A DNA stretch of 64,000 bases from Candidatus Magasanikbacteria bacterium GW2011_GWA2_56_11 (GCA_001004885.1 LCRX01000001.1:9849-73848); one strand, 5' to 3'. Positions 3,637 through 60,232 are shown, numbered from the stretch's first letter. The notes: generated by a model not told the origin, from the sequence alone. Made by a program: numbers and translations.

Positions 3637-5370
3637 GTGGAGCATAAGGCGCTGAATTTACTTCGGCGGCTAATGCCCCGCAAGGATACGACCATAGGGC
3701 GGGGGGAAAGCAGGTTACTCTTGGCCGCTTCAATCGCAGCCGCGCAAGACCTCGTCCGGCTCTTTGCCGGGTGGGGTCTGGCGTACCTCGATAGCCTCAT
3801 CCGGATCGACTCGTCGAGCGACGAGCGCTCCGGCACGGTTCCGAGCACGCCCGGGCAGCTGGCCCTTCTGGACTTCCTTCGCGAGGTCCTGGGGGGCTTC
3901 GGCTACCAGTGCGAGACCGACGCCTCCGGGGCGCTGCTCGCGCACGTCGGCGCCAACCTTCCGGCGGGCTCTACGTGCCCACCGGTGGCCTTCATCACGC
4001 ACATCGACAACTCTCTCGGCACCGTCTGTCCGGAGCGCCTCACGCGCGTCGAGCGGTGGGACGGGAGCCGCCTTGCCTACCCTGGCAACCAGCGGCTCAA
4101 CGTCTCGGTTGCCGCCTACCCGGCGCTCCAGGCGTTTGTGGGCCATGACGTCCTCCACGGCCCGGGCACCGGTCCGGTCGGACTGGACGACAAGCTCGGT
4201 GTGGCCGAGGTCCTGACGCTGGCCCGCTACCTGGCGGAACACCCCGAGATCCGGCACGGGACGATCGTCCTGTGCTTCCGGCCGGACGAGGAGATCGGCC
4301 GCGATGAGGCGGTCCAGTCGTTGGCCCGGCGGCTCGCTGAACTCGGCGTGACCCGGGCCTACACCGTGGACGGCCACACGGCGTTCGAGGTGAGCACCGT
4401 TTGCTTCAACGCCAGCGAGATGGCGATCCGCGTTCCGGCTCCGCCTCTCCACCTCACCGACAGCGTCGGGGAGCCCCAGTTCCGGTGCGCTCGCACCATG
4501 CGGCTCCGGATCCAGGGCGTTCGTACGCACGGGGCCACGGCCAAGGCCGAAGGGTACCGCAACGCGGTCCGTATCTTCACGGCCGTGATGAGCCGGATGT
4601 CTTCGTGGCAGCACGTCGTGCCGGTCGAATTCACGACCGATCCGGCGGACGAGACGGCGGCCGATGTCACGATGCTCATCCGTGGCCGCGATGAGTCCGA
4701 GCTCGACCGCTGGCAGAGCATCTTCGTCACTCAACTTGGTCAGGAAGTTGCGCCCCATGCGGAGAGAGGCGCTGGCCAGGAGGTGATGGGTACGGCCGCC
4801 GTCGCGCCGACGGACGGCCAGGGGTTCTCGGACGGCCTTAGGAAGATCATCACGATCATCGTTCTGTTCCAAAACACGCCTTCAGCTCGCCCTCTGTTCT
4901 CCGAGGACAGCGAGGGGTGGGAGGGGTACTCCAACCCCTTCACCATCACTCGTGATGGTGATCACTGGATCGTCCGCTTCCGTCTGCGGGATTTCGATCC
5001 CCGTGACCTGGCGAGGCGGGAGGACCACGTCCAGCGTGTGGCTCATTTCTCGGGCCTGCCCGAGGAGGCTGTCCACCATCGGCCGCAATACCGGGACATC
5101 AGCCCGCGGCTCGAGAGCTACCCGGAGCTCGTCGCCTGGGCCGAGGCGGCGGCCGAGCGCATCAGCGCCTCGATCCAGCGCCATCCGATCCGCGGCGGCA
5201 CTGGCGTCGGCCCGTTCCTGGATGCCGGCATCGGGGTCGCCAACCTCGGCACCGGCTACCACGGGCTCGAGAGCCCTACCGAGCTCACGAGCCTGGAGAT
5301 GATCGGGCGCCACGCCGAGTGGCTCGTCGCTCTCGTCGAGGTGGTCGCCGCGGTCCGCACCGGGTCGTAG
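3637..5370 (+). CDS. M20 family metallopeptidase, peptidase T-like (start codon uncertain, 3637 or 3673); ~68-70% GC island
   Basis: HIDNS..., GLDDKLGVAEV and FRPDEEIGRDE motifs match M20/PepT metal-binding signatures; GC rises abruptly at ~3700. Confidence 0.6.
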   Translation: MEHKALNLLRRLMPRKDTTIGRGESRLLLAASIAAAQDLVRLFAGWGLAYLDSLIRIDSSSDERSGTVPSTPGQLALLDFLREVLGGFGYQCETDASGALLAHVGANLPAGSTCPPVAFITHIDNSLGTVCPERLTRVERWDGSRLAYPGNQRLNVSVAAYPALQAFVGHDVLHGPGTGPVGLDDKLGVAEVLTLARYLAEHPEIRHGTIVLCFRPDEEIGRDEAVQSLARRLAELGVTRAYTVDGHTAFEVSTVCFNASEMAIRVPAPPLHLTDSVGEPQFRCARTMRLRIQGVRTHGATAKAEGYRNAVRIFTAVMSRMSSWQHVVPVEFTTDPADETAADVTMLIRGRDESELDRWQSIFVTQLGQEVAPHAERGAGQEVMGTAAVAPTDGQGFSDGLRKIITIIVLFQNTPSARPLFSEDSEGWEGYSNPFTITRDGDHWIVRFRLRDFDPRDLARREDHVQRVAHFSGLPEEAVHHRPQYRDISPRLESYPELVAWAEAAAERISASIQRHPIRGGTGVGPFLDAGIGVANLGTGYHGLESPTELTSLEMIGRHAEWLVALVEVVAAVRTGS

Positions 5371-9245: not shown

Positions 9246-10238
9246 ATGAGTACGGATATATACCCTACTTACCGACCGCCTGAACCCGCCGTAAAGATTG
9301 AAGGGTCTTATTCTTTAGGACAATTCTTAACAGAAATTTCCCCGGAGGGCCGTAACATTTCTGCAGACCAGGAAGAGGGGTTACTTGGAGATTTAAGGAA
9401 ACGTGAGGCGGCGGTAGCCAACAAGGAATTATTGGAAGCATTAGAGGAATACGGTATTGACCCGCACTTGATTGAAGTTCGTCCCGATGGACGTATTCGT
9501 ATTGAAGTACGCAACCATTTTAGCAAAAAACATTTACCTGATGGGTACGCCTATAAAGGCGGGGCGGCCCGTGCTCTTCTTCTGCGCAGCCTGGGCAGTG
9601 TTTTGCAAGTTGAACCTCGCGATATTGATGTGGTCCGCCTAGCCCCCGAAGAACCGTATAAGGGCGCCGATACGGAGCTTGCCAAAGAGTTTATGCCTGA
9701 TGATTTCTCCGAAGGCTGGGGCGTAGAAATAATTAATTCAGAGGATCAATACTTTTCTACCCGTGATGTAACCGTCAACGAAGTTTTGGCCACCGATCAT
9801 GAAGTAATCGCTACCGAGCAATGCGTTATTGACGCCGTCCGTCATATTATTCGTTTAACCGAATTCGAACGTGGTTCAGACAAAGACATATATACTACTC
9901 CAGGTCCGAAAATGCTAGCGAAAATATTAAGGCTCTACTCTGAGTCTATCCATTATTTTGGTGAGGCGGAGATTGCTAATGTCGAAGGTTGGGAGTTTGA
10001 ACAAGCCTTTATTTCCCCATTTTGGCTGGCGTTGCAGCTTGATCATGCGTTTGAAAGGAGCCGTGAGATCGCCGCGCTCTATGTGGAGGAGCTCAAAAAA
10101 CATGGCCAGGTACCACCCCATATTGCTGGACCCGAGGAGGCAGCGATTTACCTGTCAAATTTGATCCGAGGCGAATTTTATTATCGGCACGCGCCCGTGG
10201 AACAGTTTGAATTGGAAGATGAGTGGATGGAAAATTGA
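9246..10238 (+). CDS. Polymerase-beta superfamily nucleotidyltransferase-like protein (PolyA_pol/CCA-adding head-domain-like motif); low GC (~45%)
   Basis: YKGGAARALLLRSLG...RDIDVV resembles the GGAVRDxLLG...DIDI motif of class II CCA/poly(A) polymerases; rest of the 330-aa protein unrecognised. Confidence 0.4.
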   Translation: MSTDIYPTYRPPEPAVKIEGSYSLGQFLTEISPEGRNISADQEEGLLGDLRKREAAVANKELLEALEEYGIDPHLIEVRPDGRIRIEVRNHFSKKHLPDGYAYKGGAARALLLRSLGSVLQVEPRDIDVVRLAPEEPYKGADTELAKEFMPDDFSEGWGVEIINSEDQYFSTRDVTVNEVLATDHEVIATEQCVIDAVRHIIRLTEFERGSDKDIYTTPGPKMLAKILRLYSESIHYFGEAEIANVEGWEFEQAFISPFWLALQLDHAFERSREIAALYVEELKKHGQVPPHIAGPEEAAIYLSNLIRGEFYYRHAPVEQFELEDEWMEN

Positions 10239-10395
10239 AGATAATTTGTTACTCGTAGACGACAAGGTTTTTGGCTGGAACACCCAGGAACCAGTTGTTC
10301 GACGGTGGATCGGGGCGTTTGTGTTTTTTGGGCTGGCGGTATCGATCGATAGGTTTTTCGGATGAAACAACGCTCCGGTCATAACGGTTACTTTT

Positions 10396-11205
10396 TTAAT
10401 CATCCCCTATATAGTGTTGTTTTTCCCAGGCGTCTCGTGTCATTACGCTAATGTTTTTGACCCCGCCTGCATCTAACATCTCGACGGCCATTTGCCTGTC
10501 CGACTCGCTACCGATCAAAACGGCAACACAATTTCCATCGAGAGGCGCGTCTGATATAGTCGGATACTGTAGCGTGGCGTCATAGCTGCCAAGCTCCATC
10601 ATTTTTGGCCCCATGACAAGGACGACTCCTTTGCCAGACGCACCTACCCCATGTGGGGTTAAACCCTTGTTAATAAGATCGCCATTTTTATCAAAAATAT
10701 CCCTCGTCATCATTACATCATCACTTGCTGACCACGCTGGCGGGTTAGCATCAGGGTTTCTTTTTTTAATTTCTGATCGCGATAAAAGTCCGCCGGCTTC
10801 AATGATTCTTTTAAAATTTTCAAAACTCGTTTGGTGATAATGAAATACTCTTTCGGGAGAATCAATGCGCCCCTTTGCGAATGAGCGTATTTCTGCCAAG
10901 ATAACGCTTGGCTCTACCCCTTTCTCTTTTGCTTTGTGGCGAATCATCCGGTCTTTGCCCCGATAACTTTCCATTTGGAGCCTGGCGAGGAATTGTTGTC
11001 TTTCGGCGGGGGTTAGGGCCGGTTTTTCTTTTTCAGGAACCAAAGCTACTGTTGAATCATAATTCGTATTACCATCCCACGTGGCGGCTTTCGATACGTC
11101 AAACGTACCATCTGCCCGCTGTGCCGCGCCAACAATATACTTTGGTTTTTCGGTGCATGCCCCGGTGGCATGATCCCTTCCACAAACTTTGCATCTTGAT
11201 TCCAT
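10396..11205 (-). CDS. Hypothetical protein with N-terminal CxxC...C zinc-ribbon-like motif (269 aa); low GC
   Basis: CKVCGRDHATGAC at N-terminus; convergent with the NTase-like gene. Confidence 0.35.
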   Translation of the reverse strand: MESRCKVCGRDHATGACTEKPKYIVGAAQRADGTFDVSKAATWDGNTNYDSTVALVPEKEKPALTPAERQQFLARLQMESYRGKDRMIRHKAKEKGVEPSVILAEIRSFAKGRIDSPERVFHYHQTSFENFKRIIEAGGLLSRSEIKKRNPDANPPAWSASDDVMMTRDIFDKNGDLINKGLTPHGVGASGKGVVLVMGPKMMELGSYDATLQYPTISDAPLDGNCVAVLIGSESDRQMAVEMLDAGGVKNISVMTRDAWEKQHYIGDD

Positions 11206-11597
11206 ACAGGAATTGGGTTTAGCAAGTCTAAGTAAGTTTCCTCGATTTTTTCCAGTGTTTCAGGTTGAATGAGGGCCTTTTACACATTTAAGTACAGTAA
11301 TTTCAACTACCATTACTATAGCTGTTTTTTGCAATAATGCAATTGGCAAGAGATCGCACGAAGCGTCTTAAGGAATTTAATTAAAACGAAGCGGAGAACA
11401 AGGAGCCACTAGCCAACTGCCTCTGTACTTTGAAACGATGCCGGGCTACTGAAAAGAAATGGAATACGCAGAAAAAATTAAATTCCAGAATTCGATTTTT
11501 TCTTAAAACCGCGTACCAATATCCGGAATTTGAACCCCCGAAATTTTCTCTTATCTTCCAACAAAAAAGAGAGCTTGCATGTGCAAACCCCCAGTTG

Positions 11598-11669
11598 TAG
11601 CGCCAAGGGGAATTGAACCCCTGTTCCCAGGATGAAAACCTGGTGTCCTAACCACTAGACGATGGCGCC
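11598..11669 (-). tRNA. tRNA-Glu (anticodon TTC)
   Basis: reverse complement GGCGCCATCGTCTAGTGGTTAGGACACCAGGTTTTCATCCTGGGAACAGGGGTTCAATTCCCCTTGGCGCT folds as cloverleaf with TTC anticodon; close to E. coli tRNA-Glu. Confidence 0.8.
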
Positions 11670-17308: not shown

Positions 17309-17344
17309 AAACGCCTTGACAAGAGGCGTTTTTTAGTGTATATT
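17309..17344 (+). promoter_or_regulatory. Terminator-like hairpin AAACGCCT/AGGCGTTT+T6 overlapping promoter TTGACA-N17-TATATT
   Basis: read directly; lies between paralog 1 and the high-GC PLP gene. Confidence 0.55.
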
Positions 17345-17420
17345 CGGTTATTCCTCGGCCAGACTCGGCGCGGGGTGCATGCGTTCCCGGCTGGCGTCGG
17401 GAAAGGAGGGGTTACAAACC

Positions 17421-18575
17421 ATGGTACGACAAAGCGTCGGGCAGTGGCTGGAAGCCACCTGCCCGAATTATGACACTGCTCTGTCCCCGGTGAGCCGGGA
17501 GGCCGAGCGCGAGCTGGCCGCCAGCTTCGACGTCAATGTCCCGGACATCCCGTACGCGCGGTACGGGAACACGATCTCGCTGGCCGTAGCCAAGAACTAC
17601 GCCGACCGAGTCGGCGCGACGGGGCTCGGCTTCGAGGCTCGCCTCACCAACTGCGGCATGGCCGCGATCCGGGCGGTGTTCGAGACCGGCATCCGGTGCT
17701 ACGCTGACCATCTCGCCGCCGGGAAGGTCCTGTACGGGCTCACCGACGAGCTCTTCAGGACGGCGCCGGATCTCTTCCGGACCACGAAGCCACACCGCTT
17801 CAACGCCGTCCGCGGCCTCGGACCGGACGTGTTCCCCACCGGGATGCGGTTCATGGTGTTCGTCGAGACGATCGGCAATGGGATCCCCATGCCGGTCTTC
17901 GTTCTCGAGAAGTTCCTGCGCGAGCACTGGAACAACCAGGAGGTCCTCGTCGTAGACGGGACTTTCACCACCTGCGCGCTCCTGAACCCGTTCGGGGTCT
18001 ACGACCGGGTCAGGAGGGATTTCGGTCCGGGCACCATCAAGCTGGTGTACGTGGAGTCGCTCTCCAAGTACTACCGGACCGGGGACATCGACCACGGCAC
18101 GGCCGGGATCATCGTCGCGCCCCAGGTGTTCATCGCCGAGTGCGACAAGGTCCTGGCCCACGGCTTCGGGATCCAGTACCCGCAGCTCGCGGACTTCCCG
18201 GTTGACCTCTTCGGGGCCTGCGCCGAGGTCATGCCGCGACTGTCGTTCAACGCCAAGGCCGCGGCCGAGTTCCTGCGCGGGCATCCGCGCGTGAGGAACG
18301 TGTGGTACCCGGGCTGGGACTCGGAGCTGGCGCGGGGCGCCGGCGGCGTCCTCTACCTCGAGGTCGAGACCGATGAGCGCGGCGCGGGCGAGCGGCTCTT
18401 CGAGCCGGTCATCCCGTTCCGGGCCTCGTTCGGACACGCCCAGTCGACGCACGTCGACTTCGGGCAGTTCAACCAGAGCCTGCCGCCTGGCACCATCCGC
18501 CTCGCGGTCGGCACCCGGGAGACCCCGAGCCAGGTCGTCGCGAAGCTCCAGACGGCCCTCGGGCCGCGCCTCTAG
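17421..18575 (+). CDS. Cys/Met-metabolism PLP-dependent enzyme family protein (cystathionine gamma-synthase/beta-lyase/methionine gamma-lyase-like); ~68% GC
   Basis: YVESLSKYY (PLP-lysine motif S.TKY-like) and C-terminal IRLAVGTRE resemble the IRLSVGIE signature; AAGGAGG RBS before ATG 17421. Confidence 0.6.
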   Translation: MVRQSVGQWLEATCPNYDTALSPVSREAERELAASFDVNVPDIPYARYGNTISLAVAKNYADRVGATGLGFEARLTNCGMAAIRAVFETGIRCYADHLAAGKVLYGLTDELFRTAPDLFRTTKPHRFNAVRGLGPDVFPTGMRFMVFVETIGNGIPMPVFVLEKFLREHWNNQEVLVVDGTFTTCALLNPFGVYDRVRRDFGPGTIKLVYVESLSKYYRTGDIDHGTAGIIVAPQVFIAECDKVLAHGFGIQYPQLADFPVDLFGACAEVMPRLSFNAKAAAEFLRGHPRVRNVWYPGWDSELARGAGGVLYLEVETDERGAGERLFEPVIPFRASFGHAQSTHVDFGQFNQSLPPGTIRLAVGTRETPSQVVAKLQTALGPRL

Positions 18576-44418: not shown

Positions 44419-44991
44419 TTACCGCGCTACTATGCGCCTGATTCCGGCCTTGTGCTCGAGCGCGCCAACGCGTCCGTCGAGTTCATGGTAGTCAGTTTGC
44501 CAGGCGGTTTGCTGCAGGCTCAGTTCGATGCGTTCCTGGCCTTCTTTGAGGACTTGAATGTCGCTTTTCATTTCCCGCACGTCGCTTTTAATATCCGCTA
44601 CTTCGCTCTTTAACCCTTGTACGTCGCTTTTAAGGCCTTGTACGTCGCCTTTAATACCCTGTACGTCGCTTTTAAGGCCTTGTACGTCGCCTTTAATACC
44701 CTCTACGTCGCTTTTAAGACCTTTTACTTCGCTTTTGAGCCCCTGTACGTCGTCTTTAAGACACTGCACGTCGCCTTTCATTTCCCCCACATCGTCTTTA
44801 AGTCCTTGTACATCGCCCTTAAGACACTGCACGTCGCTTTTAATCCCCAGTATCTCTCCCTTAATTCCTTGGATTTCGCCTTTGACCCCGTGTAGTTCAG
44901 TGTTGAATTTTTCTGTTATTTCAGCAAAACCGCTAGCCACCATCACGGCCAAGTCGTCCAAAGTGATTTTTTTGCCCCCCATAAAAAACAC
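44419..44991 (-). CDS. Hypothetical heptad-repeat protein (~14 x [K-(G/S)-(D/E)-V-Q-G-(L/I)])
   Basis: translation ...KGDVQGLKDDVGEMKGDVQCLKDDVQGLKSEVKGLKSDVEGIKGDVQGLKSDVQGIKGDVQGLKSDVQGLKSEV...; no signal peptide. Confidence 0.55.
   Translation of the reverse strand: MFFMGGKKITLDDLAVMVASGFAEITEKFNTELHGVKGEIQGIKGEILGIKSDVQCLKGDVQGLKDDVGEMKGDVQCLKDDVQGLKSEVKGLKSDVEGIKGDVQGLKSDVQGIKGDVQGLKSDVQGLKSEVADIKSDVREMKSDIQVLKEGQERIELSLQQTAWQTDYHELDGRVGALEHKAGIRRIVAR
44560..44900. repeat. 21-bp tandem DNA repeat (~16 units; 42-bp higher-order unit GTACGTCGCTTTTAAGGCCTT / GTACGTCGCCTTTAATACCCT) encoding the heptad repeats
   Basis: read directly from sequence. Confidence 0.85.
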
Positions 44992-45130: not shown

Positions 45131-46724
45131 TCAGTCTCCGATGAGGCCGGCGAGCGTGAGGAGCGGCTTCGCGACGCCGCCGATGCCCTCGCCGACGATC
45201 GAGCCGACGGCGATGGTGGTGAGCGTCATCTCGGACCACTTCAGTAAGCGCCCCAGGACGACCCAGAGCAGGATGCCGCCCAGGAAGAACCCCAGGTCGT
45301 AGCCGATCGGCAGGATTAGGCCGATCCCGATCCCGATCGAACCCGGCAGCCAGCGCTTGAACTTCGTCTCCTCGAGAAGCGTGTAGGCGACGCCGATGAG
45401 GGCGCCGATCAGCAGGGCCTCGAGGGCGAAGTCGGGGAGGGGCTTCTTGCCCTCGAAGATGAGGGCGCTCGTGGCCCAGATCTTGGCCACCGGGGCCGGG
45501 AGCGTCCCGGTCTCGAAGTTGAGCGATTCGGCCGTCGCGATCTGGCCGAAGACGAAGGCGGCGATGAGCGCGCAGGGGATGATGGTCGCCGTCTGCAGCC
45601 AGAACTGGACGCCCGGCCGGACCTTGAACCATCGGCCGTAGGCCAGGTCGCCTGCAAGGTTGCCGGCTTGGGCGCCGCTGCCGGCGACCATACCGGCTCC
45701 GGTCAGCGTCGCGTCCGCGGCCGGCGCTCCGCACATGGCGGTAAAGCCTTGGAGGAGCACCCCCATCACCCGCGCTGGGTTGAACGCTGTCTGCGCCGCC
45801 GCCCGGGTGGCGATGATGTTTTGCAGAAGGCCGCCGACGACGATGAGGCCGATGACGAGCATTACCGAGAGCCCCCACCCGATGTGCAGGAACAGCACGG
45901 TGGCGAGCAGGCTCACGGCCGCGAACTCCGGCGTGAGGTCGAGCTATTGGAAGACAGCCATAAGCGTCCTGCATATCGGCGGGCAGGTAGCGCGCCATCA
46001 CGACGAGGACGATGGCGCCGACGAGGAAGCCGACGCTGGTGCGCAGGCCCATGAGGTAGGCGCCTCCGATCGCGAAGGGCGACCAGGCGATGGCCGCCCC
46101 GTAGGCCGCGAGCCCGAAGATCGCGAGCTCGGTGCTCTCGGGGACGAGGGCGAAGCCGCCGTCGCTGTTCAGGACCACGTAGCCGCAGCAGGCGACGAAC
46201 GTGGCCAGGAGGTAGTACGGCTGCCGGCGGTCGCCGCGCTCGGCCAGGGTCTCGATGATGCTCTTCGTGGCCACCGAGCTGGGCCAGGGCAGCTTGTCGC
46301 GCACGATGAGGAGCTCGCGCAAGAGCGGCACGAAGGCCAGGCCGACGAGGCTCGTGACGACGATGAAGGACACCATGCCCCAGAACGTCAGGGCGCCGCC
46401 CACCATGAACTTGGCCGCGAAGAAGTTCGAGACAAAGCCCAGACTCCCTCCGGCCGATCCCATCGTGGCCACGATCACGAGCTCGTGCGAGCTGATCTTG
46501 GTCCGCGAGAGGAAGAAGCAGGCGAAGAAGATGAGAGCCGCGATGGTCGGCCCTTCCTCGATCACCCCGAACGACAGGGTGAGGTAGGAGTTCATGGCGC
46601 ACAACAGGGCCGCGAGCACGAAGCCCGCGGCCACGCTCCGGAACGTCAGGGTCTGGGCCGCGGGCGCCGGGGAAACCGGCTCGGCCTGCGGTTGGCTTAC
46701 TTCCGCTACACTTGCACTCACCAC
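45131..46724 (-). pseudogene. OPT-family oligopeptide transporter gene, apparently frameshifted near 45930-45960; ~68% GC
   Basis: N-terminal 300 aa in one frame (…LCAMNSYLTLSFGVIEEGPTIAALIF…) and C-terminal 261 aa in another frame; junction …MQDAYG | LDLTPEFAAVSLLATV…. Confidence 0.55.
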
Positions 46725-47941: not shown

Positions 47942-47970
47942 TTGACACGTTTAGAACGTTTGGTTATACT
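47942..47970 (+). promoter_or_regulatory. Promoter TTGACA-N17-TATACT for tRNA-Val/Thr transcription unit
   Basis: perfect -35 and near-perfect -10 with 17-nt spacer. Confidence 0.55.
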
Positions 47971-48030: not shown

Positions 48031-48104
48031 GCACGCCTAGCTCAGTTGGTTAGAGCATCTCGTTTACACCGAGAGGGTCGGGGGTTCGAATCCCTCGGCG
48101 TGCA
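48031..48104 (+). tRNA. tRNA-Val (anticodon TAC)
   Basis: GCACGCCTAGCTCAGTTGGTTAGAGCATCTCGTTTACACCGAGAGGGTCGGGGGTTCGAATCCCTCGGCGTGCA. Confidence 0.8.
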
Positions 48105-48149
48105 CACCTCCGCCCCGCTTTGGCGGGTTGCGGTACCAGGCAAATACAA

Positions 48150-48222
48150 GCCGTTGTAGCTCAGTTGGTAGAGCGCGTCCATGGTAAGGACGAGGTCACC
48201 GGTTCAATCCCGGTCAACGGCT
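48150..48222 (+). tRNA. tRNA-Thr (anticodon GGT)
   Basis: GCCGTTGTAGCTCAGTTGGTAGAGCGCGTCCATGGTAAGGACGAGGTCACCGGTTCAATCCCGGTCAACGGCT. Confidence 0.8.
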
Positions 48223-48226
48223 CGGG

Positions 48227-48254
48227 TAAAACTCCGCCCCCCTAGGCGGAGTTT
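48227..48254 (+). terminator. Hairpin AAAACTCCGCC-CCCCTA-GGCGGAGTTTT
   Basis: perfect IR with T-run after tRNA-Thr. Confidence 0.7.
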
Positions 48255-48322
48255 TATGTAATTGTAAATGCAAATAACGCTGGTGGACAGTAGGACCAAT
48301 TAAGATTTATAATTCTATCGAT

Positions 48323-48910
48323 ATGAAAATGACGTCCGCAGTTATTGAGATAATAACGCTTATTATCGTAATTTTAGGCTTACTTTTTTTTGATTTTGCC
48401 ACAAGCAATTACGTTGTCCTCATTTCAATTCTAGTTGTCGGTTCTCGACTGGGATGGCTCTTTTACAAAAGAGAATTAACCCTGAAAGCAAATATCCAGA
48501 AAGAAGGCAGAATTTTTTCCGGGTGGATGAGGTATGGGACAATACTGTTGCTAGCGTTCGGTTTGTTGTTTGTATTCCAAGATGACATTAAAGGTTTGCC
48601 TATCTGGCTTACCGACCAAGAGCCTGTTTGGTTTACCTTTTTTCATGTGGGGGCACAGGAGGCAATTTTTAGGGTTTACCTTTTAAGCAGACTACAGACA
48701 ATACTTGATAGCCGAGCTGTTATTGCGGTTCTAGGCGGTCTTTTGTTCGGAGTTGTCCATTTCATTTTACCCGGTGCTTTGATAGTCGTGGCCTTCACCT
48801 CCATCTTGGGTACCGCCTGGTGTTACGTTTATCAACGGTATCCTAATTTCATCCTTGTCTGGCTTTCTCACACTTTGTTAAATTTCGCAATTAAGAGTTT
48901 GGTACAGTAG
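48323..48910 (+). CDS. CPBP family intramembrane metalloprotease (CAAX protease/Abi-like); ~40% GC
   Basis: motifs QEAIFR (EExxxR-like), FGVVHF (FxxxH), SHTLLNF (HxxxN) in a polytopic membrane protein. Confidence 0.6.
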   Translation: MKMTSAVIEIITLIIVILGLLFFDFATSNYVVLISILVVGSRLGWLFYKRELTLKANIQKEGRIFSGWMRYGTILLLAFGLLFVFQDDIKGLPIWLTDQEPVWFTFFHVGAQEAIFRVYLLSRLQTILDSRAVIAVLGGLLFGVVHFILPGALIVVAFTSILGTAWCYVYQRYPNFILVWLSHTLLNFAIKSLVQ

Positions 48911-48973
48911 GTCAACCATTTTAGTATATAACGGACCAAGTGTTACCTGACTCGTAGGGGTGACACTAAGGCA

Positions 48974-49061
48974 GTCCTAACTTCATACACCAAACGGCTC
49001 GGGTTAAAAGATGGCTCATTTAACCATCTTTTTTCGTACCCTTTGGCCGGGTTTGAACTGC
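48974..49061. repeat. Intergenic repeat family copy A (GTCCTAAC...CCAAACGGCTCGGGTTAAAAGATGG..CCATCTTTTTT..CGTACCCTTTGGCCGGGTTTGAACTGC)
   Basis: shares ~88 bp with copies at 50056 and 51839 including terminator-like hairpin. Confidence 0.8.
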
Positions 49062-49104
49062 AGTAGATCATCTGTTATTATAAACCCAGCCATAAATTTA
49101 GCGT

Positions 49105-49575
49105 ATGAATAAGATTATAGTTATAAGAGGGCCACTAGGTGTGGGTAAAACGACTGTTTCAAAGCTGTTAGCTAAAAAGCTTGGAGCAGAGTATCTGTCG
49201 GTTGATAAAATTCTTAGTGATAACAATTTAGATAAGGACGACGATATCTCAGTTGAAAATTTTTTGAAAGCCAATGAAATAATTACTGGAATTTCCGATG
49301 GAAATAGAGGACCGTATGTTATTGACGGGAATTTTTACTACCAGAAACAAATTGACGATCTAAAAAATAGATTTAAAGATGGAGTGGCTATCTTTACTAT
49401 TACAAGTACTGTAGAGAAATGTATTAAGCGAGACGCACAAAGGGAAAAAGTATATGGCGAAGATTCTGTGAGGTATGTATACATGGTGGTGTCTAAAGTT
49501 AAGGCGGGTATTGAAATAGATAATACTGACCTAACAATAGAGGAGACTATTCAAACAATAATAGACAACTTGTAG
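49105..49575 (+). CDS. P-loop NTPase/kinase-like protein (156 aa); low GC
   Basis: Walker A GPLGVGKTT; size and layout like small nucleoside/shikimate-kinase-type or zeta-toxin-like AAA proteins. Confidence 0.55.
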   Translation: MNKIIVIRGPLGVGKTTVSKLLAKKLGAEYLSVDKILSDNNLDKDDDISVENFLKANEIITGISDGNRGPYVIDGNFYYQKQIDDLKNRFKDGVAIFTITSTVEKCIKRDAQREKVYGEDSVRYVYMVVSKVKAGIEIDNTDLTIEETIQTIIDNL

Positions 49576-49588
49576 CCCAAAGTAGTAT

Positions 49589-50056
49589 ATGGACGAAATC
49601 CATTTTTCAAAACTGACCGATGTGGGTGGAATTGAAGTACTACGCGGCAGATCTGGCCGGTATAATGACTTTGTGTACACGTATGAGAGACCTACGCTCG
49701 ATTTGCTGAAGAAAAATTTTTTTCTTCGGGATAGCCTTTATTTGGTAGCGGATAATGGAACCGTGTTTGTCGCCTTTTGTTCAATAGATAGGGACTGGTG
49801 GGAGAATAATTTTTTTATGATACGAGAAATTATCGTGGACCAAAATTTCCAAAAGCAGGGCATTGGGGAGACAATAATGCGGATGTGCATAGAGCATGCA
49901 CAAAGCAAGGGGGCAGCGGGGGTGGTGACAGAAACGGCCTTTGAAAATATACCAATGCAAAAATTGTGCATTAAGTTAGGTTTTAAAGTTTGGGATAATC
50001 CACAGTGGAAAGAGGGGGTAACCTATAAGTTACTATTCCAGGAGAGGCACAATTAG
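49589..50056 (+). CDS. GNAT family N-acetyltransferase (155 aa); low GC
   Basis: IVDQNFQKQGIGETIM... (Q/R-x-x-G-x-G/A acetyl-CoA motif). Confidence 0.7.
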   Translation: MDEIHFSKLTDVGGIEVLRGRSGRYNDFVYTYERPTLDLLKKNFFLRDSLYLVADNGTVFVAFCSIDRDWWENNFFMIREIIVDQNFQKQGIGETIMRMCIEHAQSKGAAGVVTETAFENIPMQKLCIKLGFKVWDNPQWKEGVTYKLLFQERHN

Positions 50057-50213
50057 TCCTAACGTGCTCCACCAAACGGCTCGGGTAAAAAGATGGCTTA
50101 AATGAGCCATCTTTTTACGTACCCTTTGGCCGGGTTTGAACTGCTTTTACGATTGGTGTGTGTTTTAATTTATAGATTAAGCTTAAATAAGCATTTTTAT
50201 CGCCCTACGAAAG
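50056..50213. repeat. Intergenic repeat family copy B (long form, carries TTGACA-N17-TAGGTT promoter-like motif at 50232-50260 just downstream)
   Basis: ~158 bp alignable with copy C; hairpin AAAGATGGCTTAAATGAGCCATCTTT + T5. Confidence 0.8.
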
Positions 50214-50307
50214 CGCCGATCGAACGGTTGACAAGCCCAACTTTATCCTGTAGGTTATACTATTCCTACCCGCAGGCAGGAATGGCAACCACAGGAGGAA
50301 ATCGTTC

Positions 50308-51235
50308 ATGAGAGTTTACGTTCTGAACACCGGCGGAACACTGGGCATGGTCGGAGATCCGCTCCGTCCGGCCAAGTCGGCGGCCGAGCTCCTCGAGGGG
50401 GTCAAGGTCCCCCCGGGCACCGAGCTCACGCTCGTTGACTTCAGGCTCCGCCAGGACTCGACCAACGTCATGCACCAGGACCGCGTGGCGATGGGCCGGG
50501 AGATTGAGACGGCCTATGAGGAGCACGACGCGTTCGTGGTTCTCCATGGCACCGACTCGCTCGCCGAGACGTGTGCCTTCCTGGCGATGTTGTTCAAGCA
50601 GTCGCTCCAGAAGCCGCTCTTCGTCATCGGCGCGCAGATGACGAAGGACGAGCCCGGTTCGGACGTGCGACTTCAACGCCTTCCACACGCCTGGACGCCA
50701 CCCTGTGGCCCAAGCCTGGCCGCACGTCATGATCAAGCCGGGCGTGCGCAAGAGGGACGGCGTCCTCGATGTGCAGGGGCTGCGCCTCGACACGGAGTTC
50801 GAGCAGCACGTCGCCTCGGTCGTGGTCTCGGCCGACACGCCGCCCTATGTCCTCATGGACATGGTCAGGGCTGGGCGCATCAAGGGCGTCATCCTTGAGT
50901 GCAAGGGCGCTGGGAATATCCCGGACCGGCCCTGGCAGATCGGCGAGGAGAGCTACTCGTGGATCGACGCCATCCAGGCGGCGACCGCAGCCGGCATCGT
51001 GGTCGGCATCGTCTCCCCGTTCGAGGACGGCCGTGTCATCCTCGACCGCTACGAGCTCGGCGCCAAGGCCAAGGCGGCTGGCGCGATCGGGCTTGCGAGC
51101 CTGACGCCGGCCATGGCTGACGTGAAGCTCCGCCAGGCGATCGCCATGCACCGAGGCCACCCCGACCGCATTCAGCGCTTCATCGAGACGAACCTCGTCG
51201 GCGAGCTCCTCGACGGCTACGAGGACGCGGCCTAG
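50308..51235 (+). pseudogene. Type I L-asparaginase/glutaminase family gene, apparently frameshifted near 50665-50680; ~70% GC
   Basis: N-terminal VLNTGGTLGM and VLHGTDSLAETCAF motifs in frame 1; C-terminal GVILECKGAGNIP domain in another frame (ORF 50705-51235). Confidence 0.55.
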
Positions 51236-51520
51236 GCCGACGACACCGTTCGGAACGAAACTCCACTCCGGCGAGGGCAACCGGCTAACCCTCATCCCAC
51301 TATCTTTTGTAGACAATTTAGAGAAGATTGAGGAACAAAAATCTCCGACACGCGCGGGGATTTTTGTTATAGCTGTTTGAGAGGTGTTTGTTTTAGCCGT
51401 TATTTATCAATTTACTTCAATAAATCAGAAGTCACAATGTATTCTAACCACCACCCAGCACCTTGACAAAACCTCAGTTATATGCTAGCTTGGGTACATC
51501 ACCCCGATAAGGAGTTGGAC

Positions 51521-51715
51521 ATGAAGAAATGGATATGCCGCCTCGCGGCGGCTGTGTTCACGGGCGCGTGCGCCGCGCCCATCCTGAGCGGTGTCGCCGC
51601 GGGCGAGGGTACTTGCTCCGGCAAGATCGCCTTCGTGGCTTTCTACGTCCTCACGTGCGTGCTTTCCGCCGCTACCCTCGCGAGTGCGGCGAATCAGGCA
51701 CTCACCAAGGCGTGA
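51521..51715 (+). CDS. Small (64 aa) Cys-containing secreted/membrane peptide; high GC
   Basis: AAGGAG RBS before ATG 51521; MKKWICRLAAAVFTGACAAPILSGVAAGEGTCSGKIAFVAFYVLTCVLSAATLASAANQALTKA: signal-like N-terminus plus second hydrophobic helix. Confidence 0.4.
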   Translation: MKKWICRLAAAVFTGACAAPILSGVAAGEGTCSGKIAFVAFYVLTCVLSAATLASAANQALTKA

Positions 51716-51799
51716 AGCGGTGCGGCGAGCGGGGGCGTGTCTCTGGAGAGCGCCCCCGAAACCTTCTTTTGTTAGTCATCTTGGCTGGAAGAAGAAGCA

Positions 51800-51830
51800 A
51801 CAAAAGCACCCGGACAGGTGCTTTTGTTTA
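51800..51830 (+). terminator. Hairpin AAAAGCACC-CGGACA-GGTGCTTTTGTT
   Basis: perfect 9-bp IR with T-run after the small peptide gene. Confidence 0.7.
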
Positions 51831-51838
51831 TCGTTGAA

Positions 51839-51996
51839 GTCCTAACGTCCCGCGCCAAACGGCTCGGGTTAAGAGATGGCTAAGATAGCCATCTCTTTTT
51901 GTATCCTTTAGCCGGGTTTGAACTGCTTTTACAATTGGTGGATAGCTTGTAATTTTCAGATTAAGCCTAAATAAGCATTTTATCGCCTTACAAAAG
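51839..51996. repeat. Intergenic repeat family copy C (long form; followed by TTGACA at 51999)
   Basis: hairpin AGAGATGGCTA-AGA-TAGCCATCTCT + T5 with compensatory changes relative to copies A/B. Confidence 0.8.
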
Positions 51997-52118
51997 TTGA
52001 CAAAATCATTTTTTTTCTGATAGGTTAGGTGAACTTGCACGGACAAGGACGGTTGCACTCAGGATGGCGGGATGGGCCCGTTAATCTTTGTGGAACCTCG
52101 AAGGAGCGTGAGTTTATG

Positions 52119-53447
52119 GGAAAAAGGAGAGTTCGAGGGGCGGTCGAAAGTGACCGTCAGTTCGTCTCTGACCTGATGGAAGGTGCGCTGAGCCCGTACT
52201 ACGACGGGAACCACCGTGCGCACGCCAACCGGATCTTCACCACCCACATCAACGGGGGTGAGGATCACAGGGGACACTTCTCCTCCGAGCAGAAGATGTT
52301 CATCCTGGAGGAAGACGAGCGTCCCATCGGCATGATCAACATCGTGCGCAAGAAGCAGGGCACGTGGAAGATCAGCCCCCTCATCATCGACCCGAGCCGC
52401 CGGGGCACGGGTGGGTGCGGTACCGAACTCCTCACCTACGCGGAGAACTACGCGAAGGAGCGGGGTGTGCGGCAGATGTACTGCACCGTGGCGCAGCAGA
52501 ACCACGCCGCGTTCGGCTTTTTCCGGAAGAAGGGCTACATCTGCGCGGGTCAGGCTTCGAGCCACTACAAGCCCGGCATCACCGAGCGGATGATGTACAA
52601 GATCTTCTTCACGCCCGAGGAGGTGGAACACTTCGATCGCGTCTCCATCTCGGTGCTCCCCATGACGGACGAGCACAAGCCGGAGGTGGAAGCGCTCATC
52701 ATCGAGAAGTTGTCGCATCACTTCAACGGCGTCGACGCGAGCTGGGTGCAGGCCCTGTTCGACGGTTACGACCGTCGCAACTCCGGCGAGGTCAATGATA
52801 AGTACAAGCTGATCTACGTCGCGACCGATCGGTCGGGCAAGGTCATCGGTGTCGCTGGCGCCACGCCGAAGAAGGGTGAGCCGATCAAGATCATGCCATG
52901 CGTGGCCTACACGGCACAGGCCTTCGCTGCGCTGATCGCGGACATCCCTCAGCACTTGCGGGAGTACGGACGGAAGCTCTACATCCACCTCGTGCCGAGC
53001 GTGGAGGAGACCATCATGCTCCAGCGTCTGGGCTGGTCCATCGAGGCCATCATGCCCGCCGCCTACAACGACAACTACTGCACCCAACAGTGGGGCATCG
53101 ATCTGGGGAGTACCTACATGAGGACCATGCGCGTGAAGGCGAACTTCCATCGCCTGATCATGTCCGGCGTCAAGCCCCTCGAGGTGCGGGTCGGCTACGG
53201 CAACATCAAGTCGATCCGGGTCGGTGAGAAGATCCGCCTGATGAGCCGTTCGCTCGACGGCGTGATCAGGGTGCTCGGCGTGCGCCGCTACGACACCTTC
53301 GCGGAGATGCTCAAGCACGAGGATGGTGGCAAGATCGTCCCGGGCATGGATGACCGGCAGGTGCTTCAGCTCCTGCAGGACATCTACCCGCCGCACAAGG
53401 AGCGTCTCGGTGTCTACGTCATCGAGGTCGATCCCGTCAAGAACTGA
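52119..53447 (+). CDS. GNAT acetyltransferase (possibly tandem GNAT) fused to C-terminal ASCH/PUA-like domain (442 aa); ~68% GC
   Basis: GAAGGAG RBS before ATG 52119; RRGTGGCGTELLTYAENYAKERGV acetyl-CoA motif; C-terminal MRVKANFHRLIMSGVKPLEVRVGYGNIKSIRVGEKIRLM resembles ASCH. Confidence 0.5.
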   Translation, partial: GKRRVRGAVESDRQFVSDLMEGALSPYYDGNHRAHANRIFTTHINGGEDHRGHFSSEQKMFILEEDERPIGMINIVRKKQGTWKISPLIIDPSRRGTGGCGTELLTYAENYAKERGVRQMYCTVAQQNHAAFGFFRKKGYICAGQASSHYKPGITERMMYKIFFTPEEVEHFDRVSISVLPMTDEHKPEVEALIIEKLSHHFNGVDASWVQALFDGYDRRNSGEVNDKYKLIYVATDRSGKVIGVAGATPKKGEPIKIMPCVAYTAQAFAALIADIPQHLREYGRKLYIHLVPSVEETIMLQRLGWSIEAIMPAAYNDNYCTQQWGIDLGSTYMRTMRVKANFHRLIMSGVKPLEVRVGYGNIKSIRVGEKIRLMSRSLDGVIRVLGVRRYDTFAEMLKHEDGGKIVPGMDDRQVLQLLQDIYPPHKERLGVYVIEVDPVKN

Positions 53448-53562: not shown

Positions 53563-53886
53563 ATGAAAAGAGCTTTTAATGTACAAGAACCATATTTTAG
53601 TTCTATTAAAGAAGGAAAAAAAACTGTAGAGGGAAGATTGAACAAAGGAAAATTTGCTGATATGCAGCTGGGGGATACAGCTGTGATAAATGATGTTGTT
53701 GAGGTAGAAATTGTACGCACTAGAACATATGATTCTTTTCGAGATATGATTCAAAATGAAGGTATCGAGAAAGTCATCCCCGGTGCTCATTCTTTGGAAG
53801 ATGCGATAAATGTTTACTATAAATTTTATACAAGAGAGCAAGAAAAAAAATATGGGGTACGCGCGATAGAAATAAAATTGATTTGA
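53563..53886 (+). CDS. Stand-alone ASCH domain protein (107 aa); ~33% GC
   Basis: EPYFSSIKEGKKTVEGRLNKGKFADMQLGD matches ASCH (YqfB-like) N-terminal motif. Confidence 0.6.
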   Translation: MKRAFNVQEPYFSSIKEGKKTVEGRLNKGKFADMQLGDTAVINDVVEVEIVRTRTYDSFRDMIQNEGIEKVIPGAHSLEDAINVYYKFYTREQEKKYGVRAIEIKLI

Positions 53887-53939
53887 TTAAAAGATTAGTC
53901 TATTTTGTACATTACATTCAATATTTTTTTACAGTAGTG

Positions 53940-54300
53940 CATATTTTGCACATACTGTGGATGATGGAAAGAGATACCAAACTAAGTACTATAACCTCGA
54001 TGCCGTTATTTCGGTTGGTTACAGGGTAAACTCATCGCGAGCTACCAAATTTCGTATTTGGGCCACAAAAACACTTCGCGAGTACCTTGTTAAAGGCTAT
54101 GTTCTAAATAAGAAAACCATCCTTAAAAACTACAATCAGTTTATAAAAAAACGTTACATCTATACAAGCTCTTTTGCCAACACATGTTACTCTTGATCCT
54201 AAAATGGTTTTGGAGCTCGTAAAAGAATACGCAAGTACCTGGACCAAGCTCGATGCCTATGATCGAGATAATCTAAATTGGTACTTAACGGCGGATGTTT
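53940..54300 (+). pseudogene. Remnant of a RhuM-family (virulence protein RhuM-like) gene lacking N- and C-termini and changing frame
   Basis: 79-aa ORF contains KYYNLDAVISVGYRVNSSRATKFRIWATKTLREYLVKGYVLN, the conserved core of RhuM-family proteins (normally ~330 aa); downstream ...LDPKMVLELVKEYASTWTKLDAYDRDNLNWYL in another frame. Confidence 0.55.
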
Positions 54301-58531: not shown

Positions 58532-58740
58532 ACCGGACTAATTAATTTTATAAAGGCAGCATAACAAACCAAATAAAGGATGGATAGATAGCTAACTAAC
58601 TTTACAACTACGCAGCGGATAGCGAGTTAGATGCAGCTGTGGGGCATCTTTTAATGTCCCCGTCAGACGATTCGCAGCAAAAAGACGGCTTGATAGGCCG
58701 TCTTTTTGCTGCGTCGGGGTTTAAAAATTTTGCCTGGCGG

Positions 58741-59994
58741 TTAATTGAACGTGTTCCACAAGCTATAGAAAGAGAAAAGGCCGAAGAACGAAAAGGCGAT
58801 AATGATCAGGATTCGCCGCGCCAAGTGCGGCTGGATTTCTGGCGGCAGCTCTTTGTAATTGAGCCAGTTTACGAGCCCAATATGCACGAACATGCACAGC
58901 GCGTTGATAACCGCCCCGATCACGAGCAGTGTTAGCGGTTCTTTGAAGCCGAACGCGAATACGCCGATGCCGAACAGGATTTGAGCATTATCCCCATGAT
59001 GACGGCAAATAGCGATCCGATGGCGGGGATTGTTTTTTGTCCGATTACCCGCGCTTCATTCAACACGAATTTTATCCCCTGCGCGTTTCCTTCCAGCCCG
59101 AACGTGGTTACGAAAGATAGCAGGGCCAGCAGCAGAATAGTGGTTATTCCCAGGCCGTAAAATACCAGGGCGTGCTCCCGGTTTACCAGCTTCCACCATG
59201 ATTTGAACAGGGCGACGTTCTGTTCGGTCGGCTGGAATTCAAAACCGTTTAAATCTATTTTTTGCTGTCCGCCGCTGAACAGGCCTTTTATTTTTTCCGT
59301 GTAGTGTCCCATGCCGTATCCCTTTTCTCGGATATAGCTCGATTGGGTTAAATTTAAATTGCCGCCGGCGCCGCTATAGGCAAACGCGGCCAAGAACGTG
59401 GCCAGTGGTATGCCTACAGGCAGAAATGAATAACCGCGCCCCTGCCCGACAATACCCCGCAGCAGTTCGCTCCAATCGGTTCCGGCGGCCAAATAAAGAG
59501 TCAGCAGGACGATCGACGGCACGCCAATTAGAATTATGGCTTGCGAAAAACGTTCAATGGTGGGGTAAATATATTTGCCGGTACTCAAGATTATGCCAAT
59601 AAGAATCAGAAGCGCGATCGCCACGGCGGTGCTGTCGCCGCCGAGGACCGAAGAAAAAAGAAAAGCAGACGAAGCGATGATGCCCGGCCAGCCGAAGCCG
59701 ATAATCGTGGAAAGAATCAGCCAATAAGGAACCCAAGCCCAGCGCCGGGCGAGCCCCACGAATACGCTTTCGCCCCGCGCGAGGCTGTAGCGTTCGATTT
59801 CCATGTTAATAAAAAACTGGAACGTGATGCCGAGAACGGCTCCCCACACGATGCCCAGACCCCAATTGGAAGCCAGGTAGGGCCACAGGATAACTTCTCC
59901 TGATCCCAAGCCCAGGCCAAGCAGGATAAAACTGGGACCGAGCAGAGCCTTGAACGGTGGCGGCGACGGGAGGAGTTTTTGCGCGCGCTTTAAC
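58741..59994 (-). pseudogene. mntH: NRAMP-family divalent metal transporter (MntH-like), apparent frameshift near 58925-58990
   Basis: MLKRAQKLL...GPSFILLGLGLGSGEVILWPYLAS... Nramp N-terminal consensus; last TM helices (MIGAVINALCMFVHIGLVNW...) are in a different frame. Confidence 0.5.
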
Positions 59995-60232
59995 ATATTT
60001 TGTGCTGGTACGATAAAAATATTTGTAAAGTATAGCACGAGATGCGGATGATTGTCTGCTCTAATTTGGTTGGACAGCCTCTCAGAGAGGTGTTCGAGGC
60101 CAATCCCCAACGTTCTGGTTGGGTTTTGCCATAAAAGACGGCGCTTGCGGTGAGCTTTTAGTACCCGTTGCCAGAGGTTGAATTTTAACAGTTTTGCTGT
60201 AGTATAGGTTTATGTTTTCTCGTTAAAAGAAC

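Follow-up and report, generated by a model that had tools for sequence, protein, structure and literature searches.

Repeats behind a tRNA-Thr gene of a Candidatus Magasanikbacteria genome as candidate attachment-site scars of a modular genomic island

The tRNA-Thr locus and its repeat units

The 64 kb window, that is, the whole stretch of DNA analysed here, is part of the genome of Candidatus Magasanikbacteria bacterium GW2011_GWA2_56_11, which lives in groundwater and belongs to the Candidate Phyla Radiation (CPR), and this report deals with a family of repeats that lie behind a tRNA-Thr gene in it and that we read as probable traces of insertion at that gene. The name of the host agrees with that of the flanking Fpg protein at NCBI. 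The order of features is tRNA-Thr, a CPBP membrane protease gene, repeat A, a kinase and a GNAT acetyltransferase gene, repeat B, an asparaginase and a peptide gene, repeat C, a GNAT-ASCH gene with further genes behind it, repeat D, and an Nramp transporter gene.

The tRNA-Thr(GGT) gene (48150..48223, plus strand) is intact and was identified by ARAGORN and Rfam (67.9 bits); it is the anchor of the candidate island, on the side of its left attachment site (attL). It belongs to a tRNA-Val/tRNA-Thr unit, of which the first gene is tRNA-Val(TAC) at 48031..48105 on the same strand (ARAGORN, Rfam 69.8 bits). The promoter scan places the promoter of this unit, TTGACA-17-TATACT, at 47942-47970. Both tRNA genes sit immediately upstream of the array, with tRNA-Thr about 750 bp before the repeats, and, judging by composition, low-GC foreign DNA begins directly behind tRNA-Thr. 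At this point, immediately 3' of the gene, sequence and stem comparison reveal a terminator hairpin, AAAACTCCGCC...GGCGGAGTTTT (48228..48255, plus strand). It has the design of the repeat hairpins with another stem (CTCCGCC/GGCGGAG versus GATGGCT/AGCCATC), and in the island model it forms the left end of module 1.

Repeat A occupies positions 48973..49061 (core 48993-49008, hairpin 49006-49032), repeat B positions 50055..50213 (core 50075-50090, hairpin about 50087-50118) and repeat C positions 51838..51996 (core 51858-51872, hairpin 51871-51897), all on the plus strand. In pairwise blastn comparisons A is 88% identical to B and 84% identical to C over about 89 nt (E 1e-21 to 1e-24), while B and C are 83% identical over 161 nt (E 6e-40). 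Thus the three direct copies that the first-pass annotation had reported are real, and their coordinates agree with ours. The layout of a unit is AGTCCTAAC, a poorly conserved 8-nt spacer, CCAAACGGCTCGGGT, an 11-bp hairpin with an A-tract and a T-tract, and CGTACCCTTTGGCCGGGTTTGAACTGC. The motifs quoted in that annotation are all present in the copies, copy C having three substitutions within the right block, CGTACCCTTTGGCCGGGTTTGAACTGC. Blocks of 9, 15 and 16 nt are invariant beside the strongly diverged 8-nt spacer and diverged loops.

The extension of B and C by about 70 bp up to a TTGACA box, also noted before, is seen as homologous sequence leading into a TTGACA-17/18-TAGGTT promoter, and the homology between the two ends at the -10 box. 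Repeat B is followed by TTGACA-17-TAGGTT (about 50229-50257) and repeat C by TTGACA-18-TAGGTT (about 51997-52026). In repeat A, TTGAAC of the right block is the predicted -35 box of the kinase promoter (TTGAAC-17-TATTAT, 49053-49081; promoter scan). The stop codon of the GNAT gene is the start of repeat B.

The ends of the unit, AGTCCTAAC and GTTTGAACT, are imperfect inverted repeats that pair at 7 of 9 positions, and the 88-nt unit as a whole is a long imperfect palindrome that folds on both strands. In the RNAalifold structure the hairpin is nested inside further helices, CGGCT/GGCCG and GGGT/ACCC. The 64-kb window contains no further full copy. The units have no conserved coding potential, and the promoter scan shows no consistent minus-strand promoter for an antisense small RNA in B and C. 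Rfam yields only tRNAs above threshold; even at E up to 10 there is no credible overlap with the units and no partial tRNA.

Relation of the units to tRNA-Thr and its flank

The 15-mer AACGGCTCGGGTWAA is matched perfectly at four sites of the window and no more, namely in the tRNA-Thr end and trailer (48216-48230) and in repeats A, B and C, all in the same orientation and within 3.7 kb. Each unit has a 12–16-bp core identical to the end of tRNA-Thr with its trailer. For repeat B the identity reaches 16 nt: core copy 0 (AACGGCTCGGGTAAAA, 48216..48231, plus strand), formed by the last 7 nt of tRNA-Thr and 9 nt of trailer, equals the repeat B core, and on either side of this 16-nt block the tRNA site and the repeats are unrelated in sequence. 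In our judgement, a shared block of this length would be too short for RecA-driven exchange and typical of the core of an attachment (att) site. The motif AGTCCTAAC upstream of the core has no match to the tRNA and is a conserved motif on the element side; together with the 8-nt spacer it makes up the left part of the unit, which appears to be a decayed remnant of the 3' part of tRNA-Thr.

The right half of the units was compared with native tRNA flanks. A covariance model of the three units, searched against 61 loci that all share the tRNA-Thr 3' end, gave one real match, in Magasanikbacteria RIFCSPHIGHO2_02_FULL_47_14 (locus L059; 29.9 bits, E 1.5e-4), and this match falls exactly on the tRNA-Thr end and the flank downstream of it. 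When the tRNA part is removed, the L059 flank still aligns with A and B at scores of 51 and 54.5, to be compared with a maximum of 41.5 in 3000 shuffles and a next-best score of 33 among 115 tRNA-Thr loci. The common layout is GTAAAA, the hairpin, TTTTT, GTAC(T/C)C, TTGGC and TTGA(G/A)CTG. Hence the right half of the repeats (hairpin, T-run and GTACCCTTTGGCCGGGTTTGAACTG) shares its ancestry with the native DNA that follows tRNA-Thr in L059. The flank that now touches tRNA-Thr in the window shows no significant similarity to the L059 flank or to the units (p 0.04-0.27); it looks imported, as would be expected if an incoming element had supplied it. That the units hold the native tRNA-Thr flank, the tRNA itself now adjoining other DNA, is as predicted by insertion at the tRNA end. 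Among 120 loci with an identical tRNA-Thr 3' end, the CGGGT trailer is found in none, and the flank is shared by L059 only.

Two of the compared loci have peculiarities of their own. In L059, the tRNA-Thr anticodon arm recurs exactly over 15 nt (CATGGTAAGGACGGG) at 4067-4081, 310 nt upstream of the tRNA, and a small GIY-YIG nuclease gene (4090-4340) comes just after it. A weak covariance-model match in locus L042, from Patescibacteria, turned out to be an ordinary terminator. The same locus (about 3180-3300, minus strand) features a second copy of the last 19 nt of tRNA-Thr (ATCCCGGTCAACGGCTCCA) about 75 nt downstream of the gene, with GC-rich hairpins between the tRNA and this partial duplicate.

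The repeat hairpin looks like an intrinsic terminator, as it combines a stable 11-bp stem with a T-tract and has undergone a compensatory change; copy C is detected by the terminator scan. The earlier argument from covariation to structural selection was overstated for three copies, since A, B and C differ by a single compensatory pair and by three one-sided changes that keep the pairing on the plus strand via G-U. However, it is borne out by the set of six homologous hairpins, comprising A, B, C, D and those behind tRNA-Thr in the window and in L059: 65 of the 66 stem pairs are kept, and at 6 of the 11 stem positions at least two pair types occur. The arrangement of tRNA-Thr followed by a hairpin with an A-tract, stem and T-tract is found in many related genomes, in L059 and in the window. 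Since the hairpin is homologous to the native tRNA flank, we take it for the tRNA's own terminator, that is, the repeat hairpin would be the tRNA-Thr intrinsic terminator copied along with the tRNA end. It resembles the tRNA terminators of Patescibacteria in being homologous to them and in having compensatory changes, but here there are four copies of the structure, each accompanied by the tRNA end and flank, and they stand between foreign genes. The first-pass annotation had left the choice between a terminator and a recombination site; this was close, and probably both apply, the recombination role being suggested by the architecture.

A fourth, decayed copy, repeat D, was found at 58641..58733 (plus strand) as a covariance-model match in an unfiltered scan of the window (19.6 bits, E 0.012). 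It consists of a T-arm-like remnant TTTTAATGTCCCCGTCAGACG, a hairpin AAAAAGACGGC...GCCGTCTTTTT and GGGGTTTAAAAA. Counted on the alignments, D is roughly two-thirds identical to B and C, and most mismatches are transitions. The local alignment scores are 53.5 to B and 52.5 to C, whereas the maximum in 2000 shuffles is about 41. The left part of D is similar to tRNA-Thr from the T-loop and T-stem to the acceptor end (p = 0.0015). Repeat D adjoins the 3' end of the Nramp transporter gene, which lies on the other strand, and is likely the distal boundary of the island; it may also be a bidirectional terminator of the Nramp gene, the original shared terminator. Hence the array, described before as the three-copy region, covers that region and more: it takes in the CPBP segment next to the tRNA and runs on to D, some 6.7 kb farther.

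The four cores split the region into segments of 0.78, 1.08 and 1.78 kb, with a further 6.8 kb up to D. The GC content at third codon positions (GC3) is about 0.6-0.7 in host genes (~0.65), while in the modules it is either 0.23-0.47 or 0.80-0.92. The cargo is of foreign composition and origin, its closest relatives being found in other CPR lineages. The statement that the repeats separate cassettes of unrelated composition holds well, with GC3 of 0.31-0.47 against 0.80-0.92. Around each of the foreign open reading frames (ORFs), the non-coding DNA is low in GC (0.42-0.47) and contains consensus promoters as well as hairpin terminators.

Origin of the array and alternative explanations

Because the repeats are copies of the tRNA-Thr end, its terminator and its flank, we interpret them as att repeats of a tRNA-targeted island and not as a new cassette array. 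The first-pass annotation was right about the three copies but overlooked both their identity with the tRNA-Thr 3' end and trailer and the decayed copy D; what seemed a new cassette repeat is explained by the adjoining tRNA gene. In this interpretation, which we hold with somewhat more confidence than doubt, the repeats are att scars of a genomic island of about 10.4 kb, anchored at tRNA-Thr, that grew through successive site-specific insertions. Small DNA circles with a site of this kind would recombine with the core at the tRNA-Thr end, the catalyst being a site-specific recombinase encoded outside the window. Each insertion would restore the tRNA end, set a terminator directly behind it and move the older modules outward. 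The internal repeats would then be hybrid att sites that may now serve as insulators, the hairpin ending upstream transcription and the right part promoting the next module. Since the modules lack recombinases, they would at best be mobile in trans, like cis-mobilizable elements (CIMEs). As in known islands, an intact tRNA gene is located at one boundary, direct repeats of the tRNA end are present, and foreign DNA is enclosed; as in CIMEs, modules 1-3 are bounded by cores and contain cargo genes only.

Close parallels exist in other bacteria. The islands at ssrA, the tmRNA gene, of Dehalococcoides occur in tandem, with a conserved motif upstream of each repeat and with integrase-less segments (PMC3146451). 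In these islands, as in our locus, the target RNA gene is intact and marks one end, foreign segments alternate with short direct repeats of the gene's 3' end, and an element-side motif that does not match the target gene stands upstream of the repeats. The segments devoid of integration genes were read as cis-mobilizable or fixed elements (PMC3146451). The Dehalococcoides islands, however, measure from several kb to tens of kb, many of them with a serine-recombinase integration module, whereas here the modules span 0.8-1.8 kb (one 6.8 kb), no recombinase was found, and the repeat includes a terminator and a promoter. The tycheposons of Prochlorococcus form stacks of elements parted by partial tRNA copies alone, including those of tRNA-Thr(ggt) (10.1101/2020.12.28.424599). 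The likeness extends to tRNA integration, new arrivals displacing older ones outward, degenerate remnants, extra partial tRNAs and a streamlined genome. On the other hand, tycheposons are defined by a tyrosine recombinase and replication genes, none of which is present here, they belong to another host phylum, and their mobility was shown experimentally, whereas our array is known from sequence alone. In Firmicutes, CIMEs form tandem arrays when a new element integrates into a resident att site (PMC5704250). They have kept attL and attR and lost the integration and transfer genes, similar to the modules described here, but CIMEs are known to descend, by decay, from integrative conjugative or mobilizable elements, and a related resident element can mobilise them, while in our case there is neither a known helper nor a trace of conjugation genes.

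To see whether the array varies, all contigs carrying the CPBP, Fpg, GNAT or GNAT-ASCH proteins were gathered from separate ENA, JGI and Logan assemblies, based on different samples and assemblers. In about 16 contigs the order of the array is the same and the identity is 100%. The presence of the array in independent data, one of the checks that had been proposed, is thereby established, and an artefact is ruled out; the cassette content, of which a comparison between strains had also been proposed, is the same in all these assemblies. Copies of the unit were also sought elsewhere. The unit, scanned for as an exact pattern, has no matches in GTDB species representatives (one genome per species), two matches in JGI metagenomes and three in IMG/VR, all five due to chance, and blastn of the unit against plasmids and phages gives no matches. 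In the window, all four copies lie downstream of tRNA-Thr. Thus a dispersed repeat, such as a repetitive extragenic palindrome (REP) or a miniature inverted-repeat transposable element (MITE), was rejected, as the copies in the window are confined to the tRNA-Thr locus and there are no true matches elsewhere within the limits of the search; the outcome of a ubiquitous REP-like element, envisaged in the first-pass annotation, is not seen.

Several observations weigh against the island interpretation. The locus shows neither an integrase gene in or next to the island nor evidence of excision or integration. The search for a nearby recombinase or integrase, also proposed earlier, yielded none in the window: there are no Pfam integrase matches among the neighbouring or atypical ORFs, and when all six frames of the 64 kb were compared with approximate XerD and Hin query sequences, a rough test, no similar ORF turned up. 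The approximately 16 contigs include none with an empty site, a deletion, a circle junction or a different order, and no second array with different cargo was seen in the collections searched. The nearest Fpg homologue is 62% identical, and in relatives synteny is lost downstream of Fpg; since the relatives are so distant (Fpg at most 62% identity), no empty site is definable. The 8-nt spacer is not flanked by inverted repeats and hence does not show the typical symmetry of a core site. Outside the core, the left arm of A, B and C bears only a weak likeness to the tRNA (p about 0.01). The homology of the units to the native flank runs 60-140 nt past the core, and the identity block of att sites is usually shorter than that. 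Finally, the distal genes of module 4 (ORFs of 290 and 497 aa, FAD/Rieske oxidoreductase) are host-like in composition, and because of this D is possibly not a true island end.

A part of these facts is as well accommodated by homology-driven stacking or local duplication, proceeding without a dedicated recombinase and leaving the repeats as duplicated homology. The route could be a RecA-dependent single crossover (Campbell-type) of circular or linear DNA from related Magasanikbacteria that brought along a tRNA-Thr end and flank, or a duplication of the flank by unequal crossing-over, with later replacement of the genes behind the copies. Repeat length does vary with the pair (89 nt for A/B, about 160-200 nt, up to the -10 box, for B/C), which looks like variable tracts; the units are homologous to the native flank well past the short core; and no recombinase was found in the window. 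Yet the tRNA junction shares with the units only 16 nt, too short for RecA by our judgement, the perfect blocks of 9, 15 and 16 nt beside a diverged spacer and loops suggest a sequence-specific constraint, and the cargo differs widely in composition and source lineage. We consider this scenario unlikely. A slim chance is given to a description in which the units are sites of a small-cassette capture platform at tRNA-Thr, integron-like but built from the tRNA end. The recombination site would then comprise the core with the AGTCCTAAC and GCCGGGTTTGAACTGC blocks, perhaps as a folded palindrome, and each unit of ~90-200 bp would also be an expression kit, supplying a terminator and a promoter to the next cassette; the shuffling of cassettes of ~1 kb, drawn from other CPR lineages, would be the work of competence and RecA or of a recombinase with its gene elsewhere. 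The end of the B/C homology at the -10 box, so that different foreign ORFs follow the same promoter module, would fit such a platform. It is rather improbable that the repeat is purely regulatory, a terminator-plus-promoter insulator that had no part in the arrival of the genes. The covarying hairpin with its A-tract and T-tract agrees with this, as do the detection of C by the terminator scan, the predicted -35 box TTGAAC of A, the TTGACA promoters into which B and C lead, and the presumed service of D as terminator of the Nramp gene. However, invariant flanking blocks and a copied tRNA end are superfluous for a terminator, a terminator of its own (51799-51828) already follows the peptide gene before C, the remaining intergenic terminators of the window show no sequence relationship, and the composition breaks at the units beside a tRNA gene are left unexplained.

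The resemblance to integrons requires separate consideration. If the units were attC sites, the array would be a CALIN (an attC cluster without an integrase), recombined by an IntI-like integrase as a single-stranded fold. Indeed, the unit is an imperfect palindrome from end to end, with AGTCCTAAC and GTTTGAACT paired as described; its structure combines nested helices with bulges, and both the unpaired 8-nt stretch and the terminal stem are variable; its ends contain ...AAC and GTT... in the orientation of attC and lie downstream of ORFs; and the similarity of the copies, 83-88%, is as in sedentary chromosomal integrons. More generally, the modules are small, mostly single-gene and co-oriented, each followed by a similar imperfect palindrome, and they encode diverse accessory enzymes, as in integron arrays and CALINs. 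But the fit to the consensus is partial, 6 of 7 positions for TCCTAAC against RYYYAAC and 5 of 7 for GTTTGAA against GTTRRRY. Whereas attC sites act through the bottom strand, the one-sided changes here keep the pairs, via G-U, on the top strand only. Blocks of the sequence are invariant, whereas attC sites conserve structure rather than sequence. No single hairpin results from folding B and C in full, the cassettes have promoters of their own, the homology of B and C continues for about 70-110 nt past what would be the R' box (the 3' end), and, unlike attC sites, the unit is homologous to a tRNA end with its terminator and native flank. There is no attI, and no IntI-like gene was found by Pfam on the ORFs tested or by a rough six-frame scan of the 64 kb. 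All in all, an attC origin is very unlikely, given the partly fitting end motifs, the top-strand pairing and the derivation from the tRNA; the first-pass annotation, too, had set the array apart from integron attC sites. An assembly artefact, that is, a collapsed or chimeric join of related strains, could be suspected since the window differs from the other assemblies by two internal indels elsewhere; with some 16 identically ordered contigs spanning the repeats, and with copies diverged by 12-17% that would not collapse, its probability is practically negligible.

To our knowledge, the mobile elements of Patescibacteria (CPR) and the routes by which they gain genes are poorly known. CPR cells have tiny genomes and depend on other organisms. 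The locus would be a textbook case of insertion at a tRNA gene and of module stacking, in a Magasanikbacterium, with cargo from other CPR lineages of very different base composition: a Kaiserbacteria-like asparaginase, small kinases, GNAT and ASCH enzymes. The island type is a known one, with modest twists in the cassette-like module size, the terminator-plus-promoter repeats and the host phylum. If such unusually small, recombinase-less modules with an att scar acting as terminator and promoter are general, tRNA-Thr flanks could be used as markers of accessory-gene hotspots in CPR genomes.

Cargo modules and other features of the window

The gene calls of the first-pass annotation agree with Pfam. 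Module 1 contains the gene of a CPBP/Rce1-like (CAAX-type) membrane protease (48323..48910, plus strand; PF02517), with GC 0.41 and GC3 0.44. The promoter scan places its promoter, TGGACA-18-TATAAT, at 48284-48313.

Module 2 (49105..50056, plus strand) consists of two genes with Pfam matches, a P-loop small-molecule kinase (49105-49575, GC3 0.31) and a GNAT (GCN5-related) acetyltransferase (49589-50056, GC3 0.47). The kinase family is common in Patescibacteria, and the best non-self match is 66% identical. In other CPR genomes the kinase homologues are found in arrays of small genes (kinase, NUDIX, GNAT and HD genes) that do not feature such repeats. The pair has weak, sub-cutoff matches to antibiotic-modifying families: the Gar/GrdA gentamicin resistance ATP-binding protein, and streptothricin and arsinothricin acetyltransferases. 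PADLOC gives only weak P-loop matches, for the kinase.

Module 3 (50308..51715, plus strand) contains the asparaginase gene (50308-51235; Pfam; GC3 0.88-0.92) and the gene of a 64-aa hydrophobic peptide (51521-51715, GC3 0.80). Each has its own promoter and terminator, that of the peptide gene (51799-51828) being situated just before unit C. The closest relatives of the asparaginase, with 76-77% identity, come from Kaiserbacteria and Parcubacteria, and in a Kaiserbacteria contig its gene has an ordinary genomic context. At 50668/50669 the window lacks 125 bp, which results in a frameshift; the gene is intact (350 aa) in re-assembled contigs (e.g. L008). A similar difference is seen in the OPT transporter gene, where at 45927-45962 170 bp are replaced by 36 unrelated nt as compared to all re-assembled metagenome contigs. 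Both indels fall in high-GC genes; they either stem from mistakes in the original assembly or represent a minor variant.

The proximal gene of module 4 (52116..53447, plus strand; Pfam; GC3 0.87) encodes a protein that joins a GNAT domain at the N-terminus to an ASCH domain, a small fold with putative RNA-binding function, at the C-terminus. Behind it lies a low-GC insert (53563..54300, plus strand) with another ASCH gene (53563-53886; PF04266; GC3 0.23) and a pseudogene of the RhuM family, which is truncated (53957 to about 54300; PF13310, profile positions 17-76 of 252 only) and points to a decayed mobile element.

Beyond D, the Nramp ORF (58932-60110, minus strand) seems to extend into a hydrophobic ORF of 60 aa (58741-58923) read in a different frame, which suggests a frameshift or a sequencing error near the 3' end.

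ORFs of very high GC3 also occur singly among host-like genes of the window, namely an M20 peptidase (3637-5370, 0.85) and an enzyme dependent on pyridoxal phosphate (17379-18575, 0.92), the latter behind a TTGACA-17-TATATT promoter (about 17317-17345) in low-GC DNA. Foreign ORFs within host-like expression signals thus seem to be common in this genome. Another tRNA gene, tRNA-Glu (11597-11669, minus strand), has a partial copy of its T-arm (GGGGTTCAAATTCC) about 60 nt downstream, at about 11525-11540. Beyond this copy (region 9246-11669) the GC content is low (0.47) over a stretch whose two ORFs are without Pfam matches, and the region may be a second tRNA-linked insertion in the window. Finally, twelve tandem copies of a 21-nt unit at 44524-44880 lie within a coiled-coil ORF (44419-44991, minus strand) and encode a heptad-like protein repeat.

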